Below, in pieces: positions 1,778 to 7,014 of a DNA stretch of 19,285 nucleotides. The notes beneath the pieces were generated by a model, which made no database searches, was not told the origin of the DNA, and was given only the letters and a program-made list of their open reading frames with translations. Both the position numbers and the translations under genes were made by a program. The stretch is from positions 1-19,285 of the IMG/VR virus record IMGVR_UViG_2639762844_000001. One strand, 5' to 3'. Position 1 is the first letter of the stretch. Every line of letters starts with the position of its first letter. Source of the DNA: a virus (taxonomy: Duplodnaviria > Heunggongvirae > Uroviricota > Caudoviricetes).

Positions 1778-1978
1778 TTACCCATTGGCGCGGCTTAAGA
1801 GCTTATTTTTGAATTCACAATGGTCACGATATAACCATCTTGCTCGCCCGTGGATAACTTTGGCTTTTGGCAGGTCGCCGGACTTAATCCGGTCATAGAT
1901 GAAGGTCTTACCGAAGCCAGTATCAGCCATGATGAATTTCAAATCAACCAGTGAATCAGGTTGTAGTTCGTGTTGCAT
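1778..1978 (-). CDS. torI: AlpA/Xis-family recombination directionality factor (excisionase), 66 aa
   Basis: 66-aa ORF MQHELQPDSLVDLKFIMADTGFGKTFIYDRIKSGDLPKAKVIHGRARWLYRDH... recognised from memory as TorI, the KplE1 excisionase; AlpA-type winged-helix pattern; adjacent to the att core at the int-distal end as in K-12. Confidence 0.8.
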   Translation of the reverse strand: MQHELQPDSLVDLKFIMADTGFGKTFIYDRIKSGDLPKAKVIHGRARWLYRDHCEFKNKLLSRANG

Positions 1979-2102: not shown

Positions 2103-2447
2103 TTAGTCCTTGCGTAGCTCGCTGATTCTTCTGTAAGTCTCTGGTGCTTTGTTTCCGTGTATCTTCATTTCAGACTTCAACAGAGCAACGAGAGAATCCC
2201 ATTCGTTGAGGATGCCTTTGAATGCCGGAACGCGCTTTGCAACCTTGTCGAATGAATCTCTGATTTCTGGAATCTGCTCAACAAGTGCAACGCATCGCCG
2301 GAAATCGGCTGCGTCATGTGGAGCACCGAAGCTATGACCATAGATATTCTTTTTCAGTCCACATGCGATTGAGGCAAGAGTTGCGCTACTGATGCCGACA
2401 TCGCCAGTCGATTGCCATTTCAAAACCTTCATAGCCAAATCTGACAT
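2103..2447 (-). CDS. Hypothetical prophage protein, 114 aa, function unknown
   Basis: Clean ORF co-oriented with torI and the lambda-like early genes, typical GC content; no family recognised from sequence (MSDLAMKVLKWQSTGDVGISSATLASIACGLKK...). Confidence 0.55.
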   Translation of the reverse strand: MSDLAMKVLKWQSTGDVGISSATLASIACGLKKNIYGHSFGAPHDAADFRRCVALVEQIPEIRDSFDKVAKRVPAFKGILNEWDSLVALLKSEMKIHGNKAPETYRRISELRKD

Positions 2448-2689
2448 TTCTTGTCTCCATAAAACAAAACTCGCCGTAGCGAGCTCAGATAAAAGAAATC
2501 CCCGTCAGTGCGAGGATGCTGTTCATTGCTGCTATACACTTTTTTGCTCTCAACGTAAGCGGTAGCCCATTCTGTTGGGTTGGTGCAGTTGCTTTTAGGA
2601 AATGCTATTTACCCCTTAAACGTCGGCTGAAAGAGCTAAAATCCATGCAAAAAATTTACGCAATTTTGTGTATTATTGTGCAGTAAGTA

Positions 2690-3292
2690 ATGAGCTATTT
2701 TCTGCGCAAAAAATGGATGGTAAATTTGTCCGGGGCAGGAAAAATTTTATGGGCGCTAAACATGAAAAAAGATTCGTATCCTTATTTGATTTGCATGACA
2801 GTTTCAGGGCTGATCTTTATTTTCCTTTTCTTCTGGTGGCGGGAAGATATCTACAGGGTCACGTTTCTTAATCAGAGTATATCCCACTATTACATTCTGT
2901 TTAGCATGGGAATAGCTTTTCTGTTATCTCTGTTTTGGGTTAAGAAGGGGATAGTAAAACAAAGCGGCTGGAAGAGTCTGTCAGCATACCTTAAGGTTTA
3001 TGCAGGGATGTGCATATTTTCTGGATTTTTTCTGATTATACCCCTTACAACACTAACTTATTTTTTGCCTGGAGAGACATCGTCTTATGTTGCACCGTAT
3101 CGGTATACTTCCGGTAGTTCAAAAAGTTGTTCTGGAGCTGAGGTGGATGACCCCGATCTACATGAGAATATTCGCATTTGCTATCCGTATGGCAATTATG
3201 AGTACGATAATATTATCTATGTTGAAAAGAAAATTAATACATTAGGTGCGGTAGTGACATATGCACAGACCGCGCGTGATGATACTGAATGA
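2690..3292 (+). CDS. AT-rich moron: predicted membrane protein (about 3 TM helices plus Cys/Tyr-rich C-terminal domain), function unknown
   Basis: Only plus-strand gene inside a minus-strand early operon; about 39 percent GC against about 50-55 percent for flanking genes; hydrophobic segments LICMTVSGLIFIFLFFWW, YYILFSMGIAFLLSLFWV, VYAGMCIFSGFFLIIPLTTLTYFL; hairpin terminator just downstream. Start uncertain (ATG 2690, alternative ATG 2762; neither has a strong SD). Confidence 0.6.
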   Translation: MSYFLRKKWMVNLSGAGKILWALNMKKDSYPYLICMTVSGLIFIFLFFWWREDIYRVTFLNQSISHYYILFSMGIAFLLSLFWVKKGIVKQSGWKSLSAYLKVYAGMCIFSGFFLIIPLTTLTYFLPGETSSYVAPYRYTSGSSKSCSGAEVDDPDLHENIRICYPYGNYEYDNIIYVEKKINTLGAVVTYAQTARDDTE

Positions 3293-3326
3293 GATAGTAT
3301 ATAGCGGGCAAGTTTTAGTTAATTTA

Positions 3327-3350
3327 TCGAGGTAATATAATTTACCTCGA
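3327..3350 (+). terminator. Hairpin (9-bp stem TCGAGGTAA / TTACCTCGA, 6-nt loop TATAAT) downstream of the moron gene
   Basis: Read directly; followed by a T-rich stretch (CTCGTTTATT). Sits in the gap between the convergent moron and orf73 genes, so it may act in both directions. Confidence 0.45.
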
Positions 3351-3502
3351 CTCGTTTATTCTGGTATTAATATTTCGCTTTACGATCGATTTTTATCTGA
3401 TGATATCATGCGGTTTTCATATACTGACTTACTGTCTTTTCTCCGTTAGCGATTTTCTCATGCTCAGCGATGATTTTATCTTTGGCTTCTAGTTAATTTC
3501 GC

Positions 3503-3724
3503 TCACTTCGAACCTCTCTGTTTACTGATAAGTTCCAGATCCTCCTGGCAACTTGCACAAGTCCGACAACCCTGAACGGCCAGGCGTCTTCGTTCATCTA
3601 TCGGATCGCCACACTCACAACAATGAGTGGCAGATATAGCCTGGTGGTTCAGGCGGCGCATTTTTATTGCTGTGTTGCGCTGTAATTCTTCTATTTCTGA
3701 TGCTGAATCAATGATGTCTGCCAT
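3503..3724 (-). CDS. TraR/DksA-family C4 zinc-finger protein (lambda Orf73-like), 73 aa
   Basis: CxxC...17...CxxC pattern (CCECGDPIDERRRLAVQGCRTCASC) and length typical of phage TraR homologues that bind RNA polymerase. Confidence 0.8.
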   Translation of the reverse strand: MADIIDSASEIEELQRNTAIKMRRLNHQAISATHCCECGDPIDERRRLAVQGCRTCASCQEDLELISKQRGSK

Positions 3725-5138: not shown

Positions 5139-5920
5139 GCTGCCACCTTCTGCTCAGTGGCTTTCTGTTTCAGGAATCCAAGAGCTTTCACTGCTTCGGC
5201 CTGTGTCAGTTCTGACGATGCGCGAATGTCGCGGCGAAATATCTGGGAACAGAGCGGCAATAAGTCGTCATCCCATGTTTTATCCAGGGCGATCAGCAGA
5301 GTGTTAATCTCCTGCATGGTTTCATCGTTAACCGGAGTGATGTCGCGTTCTGGCTGACGTTCTGCAGTGTATGCAGTATTTTCGACAATGCGCTCGGCTT
5401 CATCCTTGTCATAGATACCAGCAAATCCGAAGGCCAGACGGGCACACTGAATCATGGCTTTATGCCGTAACATCCGTTTGGGATGCGACTGCCACGGCCC
5501 CGTGATTTCTCTGCCTTCGCGGGTTTTGAATGGTTCGCGGCGGCATTCATCCATCCATTCGGTAACGCAGATCGGATGATTACGGTCCTTGCGGTAAATC
5601 CGGCATGTACAGGATTCATTGTCCTGTTCAAAGTCCATGCCATCAAACTGCTGGTTTTCATTGATGATGCGGGACCAGCCATCAACGCCCACCACCGGAA
5701 CAATGCCGTTCTGCTTATCAGGGAAGGCGTAAATTTCTTTCGTCCACGGATTAAGGCCGTACTGGTTGGCGACGATCAGCAATGCGATGAACTGCGCATC
5801 GCTGGCATCACCTTTAAATGCCGTCTGGCGAAGAGTGGTGATCAGTTCCTGTGGGTCGACAGAATCCATGCCGACACGTTCAGCCAGCTTCCCTGCCAGC
5901 GTTGCGAGTGCTGTACTCAT
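5135..5920 (-). CDS. bet: Lambda Bet single-strand annealing protein (Red beta), 261 aa
   Basis: Near-identical to lambda Bet as recalled ([66 protein letters not shown]...). Confidence 0.95.
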
Positions 5921-5925
5921 CCGTT

Positions 5926-6342
5926 TTATACCTCTGAATCAATATCAACCTGGTGGTGAGCAATGGTTTCAACCATGTACCGGATGTGTTCTGCCATGCG
6001 CTCCTGAAACTCAACATCGTCATCAAACGCACGGGTAATGGCTTTTTTGCTGGCCCCGTGGCGTTGTAAATGATCGATGCAGAGTGATTCAAACAGGTGC
6101 TGGGGCAGACCTTTTTCCATGTCGTCTGCCAGTTCTGCCTCTTTCTCTTCACGGGCGATCTGCTGGTAGTGACGCGTCCAGCTCTGAGCCTCAAGACGAT
6201 CCTGAATGTAATAAGCGTTCATGGCTGAACTCCTGAAATAGCTGTGAAAATATCGCCCGCGAAATGCCGGGCTGATTAGGAAAACAGGAAAGGGGGTTAG
6301 TGAATGCTTTTGCTTGATCTCAGTTTCAGTATTAATATCCAT
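5926..6342 (-). CDS. gam: Lambda Gam, RecBCD inhibitor, 138 aa
   Basis: Near-identical to lambda Gam as recalled ([36 protein letters not shown]...). Confidence 0.95.
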
Positions 6343-6440
6343 TTTTTATAAGCGTCGACGGCCTCACGAAACATCTTTTCATCGCCAATAAAAGTGGCGA
6401 TAGTGAATTTAGTCTGGATAGCCATAAGTGTTTGATCCAT
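6297..6440 (-). CDS. kil: Lambda Kil host-killing protein (FtsZ inhibitor), 47 aa
   Basis: [47 protein letters not shown]; overlaps gam by 46 nt and cIII by 32 nt, as in lambda. Confidence 0.85.
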
Positions 6441-6573
6441 TCTTTGGGACTCCTGGCTGATTAAGTATGTCGATAAGGCGTTTCCATCCGTCACGTAATT
6501 TACGGGTGATTCGTTCAAGTAAAGATTCGGAAGGGCAGCCAGCAACAGGCCACCCTGCAATGGCATATTGCAT
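6409..6573 (-). CDS. cIII: Lambda CIII, FtsH (HflB) protease inhibitor, 54 aa
   Basis: [54 protein letters not shown] recognised as lambda CIII. Confidence 0.9.
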   Translation of the reverse strand: MQYAIAGWPVAGCPSESLLERITRKLRDGWKRLIDILNQPGVPKNGSNTYGYPD

Positions 6574-6645
6574 GGTGTGCTCCTTATTTATACATAACGA
6601 AAAACGCCTCGAGTGAAGCGTTATTGGTATGCGGTAAAACCGCAC

Positions 6646-7014
6646 TCAGGCGGCCTTGATAGTCATATCATCTGAATCAAATATTCCTGATGTATCGATA
6701 TCGGTAATTCTTATTCCTTCACTACCATCCATTGGAGGCCATCCTTCCTGACCATTTCCATCATCCCAGTCGAACTCACAAACAACACCATATGCATTTA
6801 AGTCTTTCGAAATTGCTATAAGCAGAGCATGTTGCGCCAGCATGATTAATACAGCATTTAATACAGAGCCGTGTTTATTGAGTCGGTATTCAGAGTCTGA
6901 CCAGAAATTATTAATCTGGTGAAGTTTTTCCTCTGTCATTACGTCATGGTCGATTTCAATTTCTATTGATGCTTTCCAGTCGTAATCAATGATGTATTTT
7001 TTGATGTTTGACAT
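6646..7014 (-). CDS. ea10: Lambda Ea10-like early protein (122 aa)
   Basis: Length and sequence match lambda ea10 as recalled; position between cIII and the ral-side region. Confidence 0.8.
   Translation of the reverse strand: MSNIKKYIIDYDWKASIEIEIDHDVMTEEKLHQINNFWSDSEYRLNKHGSVLNAVLIMLAQHALLIAISKDLNAYGVVCEFDWDDGNGQEGWPPMDGSEGIRITDIDTSGIFDSDDMTIKAA

Follow-up and report, generated by a model that had tools for sequence, protein, structure and literature searches.

A mobile membrane-protein cassette in the early-left region of a decayed lambdoid prophage of Escherichia coli and its possible role in phage exclusion

What does a single plus-strand gene do among the minus-strand early-left genes of a lambda-like prophage? 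The question is raised by the gene at 2690-3292 of a 19,285-nucleotide stretch of viral DNA (IMG/VR record IMGVR_UViG_2639762844_000001, Caudoviricetes), which is referred to here in its full length as the window. A first reading made from the letters of this DNA (the original prediction) had described an AT-rich gene for a membrane protein, closed by its own hairpin, and had proposed that it is an accessory gene expressed in the lysogen, possibly for superinfection exclusion or abortive infection. Here, we followed up this locus computationally. Taken jointly, the gene, the cassette that carries it and the architecture of its product are, with high confidence, as described below. The target is a textbook moron, that is, a familiar kind of element, with a protein family that has no known relative. 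Exclusion of superinfecting phages at the envelope by the target protein is a conjecture, and we hold it tentatively.

The target open reading frame (ORF) is the sole plus-strand gene between the torI/xis gene and the DUF2528 gene, as borne out by both the ORF list and the RefSeq annotation of Escherichia coli (E. coli) ECC-1470, in which the target region is 100% identical, and the ORF list contains no minus-strand ORF of at least 40 amino acids that overlaps it. Its GC content is 0.390 compared with 0.494 for the window, in line with the predicted value of about 39%. The frame 2690-3292 is present as a maximal ORF of 200 amino acids, as the original prediction had it, but the real start is almost certainly the ATG at 2762 (Met25 of the 200-residue form), giving a protein of 176 amino acids. 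The frame is thus divided as follows.
2690-2761, plus strand: 5' extension of the maximal ORF (Met1-Asn24), probably untranslated, with no counterpart in diverged homologues
2750-2752, plus strand: weak Shine-Dalgarno-like GGG, 9 nt 5' of the ATG at 2762, with GG invariant across eight aligned upstream regions
2762-3292, plus strand: coding sequence, 176 amino acids plus stop, for a predicted inner-membrane protein, based on homologue starts, substitution ratios and the AlphaFold2 model

We place the true coding sequence at 2762-3292 because of the starts of the homologues, the in-frame stops within the extension and the Shine-Dalgarno sequences before the equivalent ATG. In Salmonella, Klebsiella, Enterobacter and Cedecea, homologues with 43-78% identity are 169-180 amino acids long, and all of them start at the residue aligned with Met25, which is invariant in the homologue alignment. 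In the E. coli copy borne by a P2-like prophage (L020), the upstream stretch has no Met1 and contains an in-frame TAA, and the strain E2 copy has an in-frame TAG in the extension; in both, the downstream ORF is intact. AAGGAGG or AAGGA precedes the equivalent ATG in the chromosomal copies of Klebsiella and Enterobacter, the 176-residue form is annotated by RefSeq in strain E2 and in O103:H2, and the extension lies mostly upstream of the predicted transcription start described below. Another plus-strand ORF in a different frame (2749-2871), which has AGGA 8 nt before its ATG at 2749 and overlaps the true start, was disregarded, as this ATG is missing in the Salmonella copies.

Published annotations of the same gene conflict with one another and include 200 amino acids (RefSeq), 188 amino acids with a TTG start (phage 434), 176 amino acids, 112 amino acids and "frameshifted". 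The conflict exists because the start was misplaced, and the spurious N-terminal extension forced onto the gene led to the "frameshifted" calls. Clusters P0159, P0161 and P0168 are among the conflicting gene calls. We also considered the 112-residue "truncated" and the "frameshifted" P2-borne copies as a sign of decay, since frameshifted or truncated homologues had been proposed as evidence against a functional gene. This idea was rejected: both "frameshifted" copies that were checked (L037 1593-2168 and L038 1593-2168) are intact from the true ATG, and losses of the gene, for example via IS1203 or by 5' truncation, are rare (7 of 915 E. coli genomes). The ratio of nonsynonymous to synonymous substitution rates (dN/dS) was 0.115, 0.084 and 0.168 in comparisons with copies of 78, 70 and 57-58% identity, respectively; values of 0.07-0.10 for the C-terminal domain contrast with higher ones, 0.09-0.22, for the helical part. 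Judged by these substitution patterns, the gene is real and under purifying selection, which is strongest in the C-terminal domain.

The predicted number of about three transmembrane (TM) helices was supported by both hydropathy and AlphaFold2, which agree and place a beta domain after them. The domain had been described as an 80-residue Cys/Tyr-rich domain; it is indeed Tyr-rich (9 Tyr, 12%), but it has 74 residues and only two Cys, and "Cys-rich" was wrong. The AlphaFold2 model from 22 family sequences (predicted local distance difference test score, pLDDT, 85.6; predicted template modelling score 0.70) shows helices at residues 5-29, 38-61 and 69-101, a strand at 34-36 and then five strands, and the last 77 residues modelled alone gave a pLDDT of 90.8. 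The parts of the protein, numbered on the 176-residue form, are encoded as follows.
2780-2839, plus strand: TM helix 1 (residues 7-26), from hydropathy and the model helix 5-29
2840-2878, plus strand: conserved loop, predicted to be periplasmic (W..IYRVTFL), with a short strand in the model (34-36), net charge 0, with W26, I30, T34 and L36 conserved
2879-2941, plus strand: TM helix 2 (residues 40-60), from hydropathy and AlphaFold2
2942-2995, plus strand: cytoplasmic loop with five Lys and zero acidic residues, from the positive-inside rule
2996-3067, plus strand: TM helix 3 (residues 79-102), from hydropathy and AlphaFold2
3068-3289, plus strand: predicted periplasmic C-terminal domain of 74 amino acids, a five-stranded small beta-barrel, acidic and Tyr-rich
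3128-3130, plus strand: codon of Cys123, invariant in the 25-sequence alignment, putative disulfide
3179-3181, plus strand: codon of Cys140, invariant in the same alignment, putative disulfide

Because the charge pattern, with two Lys/Arg residues at the N-terminus, follows the positive-inside rule, we infer an N-in, C-out topology in which the N-terminus and the second loop are cytoplasmic and the first loop and the C-terminal domain are periplasmic. The model is consistent with the loop-1 strand and the C-terminal domain packing onto each other on one side of the membrane. When 25 family members with identities as low as 16% are aligned, Cys123 and Cys140 are the sole invariant residues, and this pair is, as far as the aligned members tell, the signature of the family; the two residues would form a periplasmic disulfide flanking a beta-hairpin. 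As a tentative likeness, the closest fold to the C-terminal domain is found in DUF1093/YxeA-type small beta-barrels (PDB 3npp and 2k5q), which are small five-stranded OB-like barrels of secreted or membrane-associated proteins. A structure search with the full model found no relative, Foldseek against the BFVD viral structures gave nothing at E <0.001 (TM-score at most 0.35), and a profile search of PDB sequences gave nothing below E 0.5. Kinship with the MliC/PliC periplasmic lysozyme inhibitors was also considered, as the invariant S-C-S-G-A-x-V of the target presumably resembles the SxSGAxY loop of MliC/PliC. This resemblance found no support, with no Pfam MliC match and no match to an MliC/PliC-like barrel, and the kinship was rejected.

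The gene is carried in a mobile cassette that lambdoid and P2-like phages have in common. By blastn, window positions 2625-3399 align with positions 5864-6636 of the P2-borne E. coli copy L020 at 76% identity, and a second segment aligns at 2594-2629. The shared unit of about 0.8 kb consists of about 140-170 bp 5' of the ATG, the ORF and about 107 bp 3' with the hairpin, and in the P2 copies the homology ends at the onset of a fragment of an Ea22-like pseudogene. The cassette and its control elements are as follows.
2594-3399, plus strand: mobile cassette (moron) of upstream control region, coding sequence and hairpin, from blastn against the P2-borne copy
2655-2683, plus strand: TTGTG(C/T)A repeats, 10-bp phased, upstream of the putative promoter and conserved in P2-borne copies
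2698-2703, plus strand: inferred weak -35-like hexamer TTTTCT, 17 nt 5' of the -10, conserved in E. coli and Salmonella P2-borne copies
2718-2726, plus strand: putative extended -10 TGgTAAATT, with a predicted transcription start near 2733
3327-3350, plus strand: terminator-like hairpin closing the cassette, with a 9-bp stem, a 6-nt loop and CTCGTTTATT tail

The element TGnTAA(A/T/G)TT lies 36-40 nt 5' of the ATG in seven of eight upstream regions, including those of copies only 55-57% identical in protein, and the DNA around it otherwise diverges among these regions. It looks like the extended -10 promoter of the cassette, which on this positional evidence would start transcription near 2733, downstream of the spurious Met1. 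A generic promoter scan did not call the extended -10 at 2718-2726. The TTGTG(C/T)A repeats number two or three in the lambdoid and P2 copies (three clean ones in L007, at about 5870-5905) and may be the site of a host regulator. In the phage 434 annotation, one pair of the repeats (2666-2679) is marked as a CII site, and we therefore considered a CII-activated promoter. At pRE, pI and paQ, the spacing between the CII site and the -10 is about 13 nt. A CII site is unlikely here because 41 nt separate it from the conserved -10, chance alone should yield about four instances of TTGYN6TTGY in the window (4.25), and the same repeats are present in P2-like phages, which have no CII. At the other end of the cassette, the hairpin of the original prediction was recovered at 3327-3350 and has a tail rich in T; folding of the 81-nt region gives z = -2.2, and L020 keeps the stem, in which one A-T pair has become G-C (a compensatory change), one pair is a wobble and one is mismatched.

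Base composition also sets the gene apart from its surroundings: phage-borne copies have a GC content of 39-42% compared with 49-53% around them (39.0% for the window gene and about 52% for exo/bet; 41-42% for P2-borne copies in loci of 52-53%). Its occurrence is patchy in phages and broad in hosts. Among 50,697 phage records, the target protein is encoded only by phages 434, 2B8 and mEp332, in which the target region is about 98.5% identical, and the gene is present in only 3-5 of the 220 phage records sharing its flanks, being missing from most lambdoid phages with the same flanks. In phage 434, CPT_434_36 ("putative membrane protein"), part of which had been sequenced by 1990 as "ORF-22+" (M60848), is essentially the same gene, with about 98.5-98.9% identity and the same flanks and orientation; it differs in its annotated TTG start (188 amino acids) and in an extra ORF55 segment of about 196 bp on the left. 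The phage 434 genome announcement assigns it no function (PMC9119081). Of 5,426 complete E. coli genomes, 915 (about 17%) match, always in the chromosome, and at least 80% of the region is present in 908 of these; the ybhC-site prophages of O157:H7 and O104:H4 are among the carriers. Another allele, whose protein is 78% identical, occurs in 77 genomes (at least 95% DNA identity). When 1.84 billion representative proteins were searched exhaustively with a profile, no more than 61 relatives came up, almost all of them sharing the architecture of about 170 amino acids, so by this search the family is narrow. A protein of 3,074 amino acids (P0124) was rejected as a relative, since its score was the sum of twelve 2-3-bit matches to an adhesin-type repeat.

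The gene is also retained where the prophage around it has decayed. It is intact in three separately decayed prophages, namely this window, in which an insertion sequence removed everything from N to the head genes, the O157:H7 element, a remnant with a frameshifted int and a truncated bet, and the strain E2 remnant, which is less than 4 kb long and has an exo pseudogene. A phage moron is a unit that a phage genome has gained and that is transcribed independently (Cumby et al. 2012, PMC3594210). The proposal of an independently organised prophage accessory gene of this kind is well supported by the sharing of the cassette, the positional conservation of the putative -10, the base composition, the patchy presence and the retention.

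The homologues provide the context in which a function can be discussed. Five sampled lineages, 55-78% identical to the window protein, lie between gpQ (portal) and gpA (replication) of P2-like prophages: E. coli P0039, Salmonella P0044 and P0048, Klebsiella michiganensis P0055, and P0062. This interval is the P2 hotspot that carries old, tin and many anti-phage systems (Rousset et al. 2022, PMC9122126), and some of the homologues in it adjoin other candidate defence or toxin-antitoxin genes. In Table S5B of the same study, "System #4" is a single 181-residue protein with no Pfam match, "3 TM" and 470 occurrences. By BLASTP, it is 52% identical to the window protein over 168 amino acids (E 1e-57), and the shared three TM helices, C-terminal motifs and Cys pair mark it as a true homologue; it differs in setting, as it sits in the P2-like gpQ-gpA interval and the window copy in the exo-xis (early-left) region of a lambdoid prophage. 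A truncated pseudogene comes after the cassette in E. coli P2-like prophages (L035 4271-4641, minus strand; also in L036, L037 and L038); the Prokaryotic Genome Annotation Pipeline names it ead/Ea22-like, and its N-terminus matches phrog_368. It looks like a scar, which suggests, without proving it, that the P2 hotspot received the cassette from the exo-xis region of a lambdoid phage. In K. michiganensis P2-like prophages (L023 2281-5623, minus strand), the homologue has in its hotspot also a two-gene unit for proteins of 790 amino acids (weak AAA_16 match) and 279 amino acids, and this unit may be another uncharacterised defence candidate.

An exclusion or abortive-infection role is backed by circumstantial evidence, namely the homologues in the P2 old/tin hotspot. 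We favour exclusion because five homologue lineages and System #4 occur in a hotspot where many cargo genes are anti-phage, and it is plausible because single inner-membrane entry blockers have precedent in SieA, gp15 and SNIPE. In the proposed mechanism, the sigma-70 extended -10 promoter (2718-2726) would drive the single 176-residue gene up to its own hairpin at 3327-3350. As it is transcribed opposite to the pL operon, the gene could be expressed while the prophage is repressed, and we infer expression in the lysogen from its own promoter. The product, an inner-membrane protein with its N-terminus inside and three helices, would display the loop and the 74-residue beta-barrel, with a Cys123-Cys140 disulfide, in the periplasm. 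It would act alone at the envelope and stop superinfecting phages at or before genome entry, with the periplasmic domain engaging an incoming tail-tip, tape-measure or ejection protein or a host inner-membrane entry factor. Such an action would be like that of P22 SieA or HK97 gp15, with an unrelated protein. More tentatively still, the target can be seen as the lambdoid founder of an Enterobacterales-restricted family of single-protein envelope immunity, in which a disulfide-locked barrel blocks genome entry or neutralises a periplasm-acting phage or bacteriocin enzyme by a fold and mechanism unrelated to those of SieA, Imm, Sp, gp15 and Cor.

Compared with these known proteins, the target has both likenesses and differences. 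P22 SieA is a single inner-membrane protein that prevents the injection of DNA (PMC10883804). Like the target, it is prophage-encoded, independently transcribed and a small multi-pass inner-membrane protein (about 165 amino acids); unlike the target, it is, by its sequence, without a 74-residue C-terminal domain with a Cys pair. HK97 gp15 and SNIPE are known membrane proteins that block genome entry. The former is also a lambdoid moron with its own terminator, whose membrane protein excludes phage at genome entry, but it has 62 amino acids and lies among tail genes on the same strand. T4 Imm and Sp and the lactococcal Sie2009-type proteins are membrane-anchored and act at the outer face of the cytoplasmic membrane on the incoming phage, and Sp inhibits the tail lysozyme; they differ from the target in size and topology, and the target matches no such family in Pfam or PHROGs.

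Several results weigh against phage exclusion. The relationship to exclusion or abortive-infection families that the original prediction had suggested searching for did not appear, as no exclusion or defence family was matched in Pfam, PHROGs or PADLOC. Particularly, Pfam gave nothing above threshold (a sub-threshold DUF6057 match, E 0.022, is noise from TM segments), PHROGs gave only phrog_1416, which is of unknown function and lies on the C-terminal domain, PADLOC-DB v2 gave no match at E up to 10, and NCBIfam has no matching model. We take Pfam-A and PHROGs to contain models for T4 Imm/Sp, SieB, Cor, Llp and similar exclusion families. With hhalign, the family profile showed no similarity to P22 SieA (probability 0.2%, 10 aligned columns) or to HK97 gp15 (probability 0.7%). 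The TGnTAAATT motif by itself is not rarer than chance in the window, and because the motif alone is statistically ordinary, it is positional conservation that speaks for the promoter. The System #4 sequence is not in the table of tested systems of Rousset et al. 2022; it was catalogued, not characterised, and no subsequent report of anti-phage activity was found. In addition, not all cargo of the P2 hotspot serves defence, as partition systems and the cytolethal distending toxin are also found there (Rousset et al. 2022, PMC9122126), and four sampled lineages (Enterobacter, Klebsiella, Cedecea and one further) have the gene in the chromosome, outside any prophage and with an unremarkable GC content. 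Separately from this, the difficulty of recognising the protein, already stated in the original prediction, was met everywhere: it is named "hypothetical" or "transmembrane protein" in every source, an accession search found no literature naming it, the target accessions are not among the entries of the DefensePredictor supplements, and the Salmonella prophage transcriptome of Owen et al. 2020 covers no homologue.

The chromosomal homologues suggest an ancestral cellular envelope role, and they lead to the main rival of phage exclusion, which we consider somewhat unlikely: an envelope fitness (lysogenic-conversion) factor unrelated to phage defence. Here, the domain would modulate or protect a component of the host envelope, with tolerance to lysozyme-type enzymes, bile, bacteriocins or antimicrobial peptides as examples, or else a membrane sensor would be tuned by it, and temperate phages would have captured a chromosomal enterobacterial gene that benefits the lysogen. 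The position of the chromosomal copies beside LysR-, AraC- or OmpR-type regulators, the retention of the gene in remnants no longer able to produce phage and the non-defence cargo of the hotspot all agree with such a factor. However, the neighbours of the chromosomal copies are inconsistent between genera, the phage-borne copies cluster in hotspots enriched for anti-phage genes, and no homology to a known virulence or stress protein was found. Abortive infection, in which the domain senses the attack and the three-helix bundle depolarises or permeabilises the inner membrane and kills the infected cell, following a RexB-like logic in one protein, shares the hotspot argument with exclusion. TM proteins in defence hotspots are often suicide effectors (Rousset et al. 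2022, PMC9122126), and the target has conserved residues on both membrane faces, including an N-terminal K-x-SYP motif and the Lys-rich cytoplasmic loop. We nevertheless regard this as improbable: known TM effectors are normally paired with a sensor or enzyme, whereas the cassette consists of one gene and occurs in widely differing neighbourhoods; constraint is strongest on the periplasmic domain rather than on the helices; and the protein resembles neither RexB nor the CBASS, Thoeris or retron TM effectors that PADLOC covers.

A role that serves the life cycle of the phage itself and not the host, for instance in entry, exit or the timing of lysis, could be suspected from the location inside the early-left (exo-xis) region of a lambdoid phage and from the three TM helices, a number that class I holins also have. 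This is very improbable, since the gene is transcribed against the pL operon, is missing from most lambdoid phages with the same flanks, occurs in unrelated P2-like phages and in chromosomes, stays intact in remnants without lysis and structural genes, and adjoins no lysis gene. The last possibility, a chance AT-rich ORF or a decaying pseudogene, could draw on the conflicting annotations and on the few genomes that hold no more than fragments, but it is effectively refuted by the dN/dS values of 0.08-0.17, by the architecture and invariant Cys pair that are conserved down to 16% identity, and by the intactness of the "frameshifted" copies from the true start and of at least 80% of the region in 908 of 915 genomes. 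Phage exclusion at the envelope is the reading that we carry forward, as a conjecture.

The locus lies in a decayed prophage. The window is a whole decayed prophage at argW, bounded by cscB and intS, in which the N, immunity, replication, lysis and head genes are gone and an insertion element of the IS3 family stands in their place. The other features of the window are as follows.
1-1248: cscB, at the left end of the window
1778-1978, minus strand: torI-type excisionase (torI/xis) gene, from the ORF list and RefSeq annotation
2103-2447, minus strand: ORF114 homologue
2467-2517, minus strand: two tandem terminator-like hairpins, pL operon tL4 of phage 434 (t-L4 in M60848, 1990), outside the cassette
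3503-3724, minus strand: TraR/DksA zinc-finger gene, the next gene after the target ORF
Between the TraR/DksA gene and the DUF2528 gene, minus strand: small exo-xis genes, then exo, bet, gam, kil and cIII
6646-7014, minus strand: DUF2528 gene
From about 7191: IS3-family element (ISEc52-like), with baseplate and tail genes and intS beyond

Several further observations were made around the locus. The lambda-like early-left genes are joined directly onto Mu/e14-type tail and baseplate genes. At 6528-6586 (minus strand), the lambda cIII thermoregulator RNA element (Rfam RF01804) scores 88.5 bits, and the cIII leader is therefore intact although pL and N are lost. The tL4 hairpins lie just downstream, in the pL direction, of the plus-strand cassette; therefore, unantiterminated pL transcripts would traverse the cassette in antisense and then terminate. 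Compared with phages 434 and 2B8, the window is without about 196 bp (ORF55; phage 434 3049-3260) between ORF114 and tL4, at about 2447-2470 of the window. A 56-residue ORF at 2516-2686 (plus strand), which in phage 434 is the "putative membrane protein" CPT_434_35, overlaps the tL4 hairpins; it is probably not a gene, as it has no PHROG match and lies outside the cassette common to the P2 copies.

In conclusion, one cargo cassette is common to lambdoid and P2-like phages, and it is more widely spread than the sequence of the window alone could show. The annotation problem is fixed whatever the function, as calls of several conflicting lengths are reduced to one gene. The cassette is a worthwhile and cheap experimental target and an easy test case: it is a single gene with its own putative promoter, available in phages 434 and mEp332, and comparison alleles can be taken from P2-like phages. 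If the protein does exclude phages, it would explain part of the phage resistance of many E. coli lysogens, pathogenic lineages included, which would be relevant to phage therapy and typing, and a new fold would join the short list of entry-blocking proteins. If, furthermore, it belongs to a family of envelope immunity proteins, it would be among the commonest prophage-encoded defences in E. coli, present in about 17% of genomes, those of O157:H7 and O104:H4 among them, and it would have escaped notice in phage 434 since 1990.

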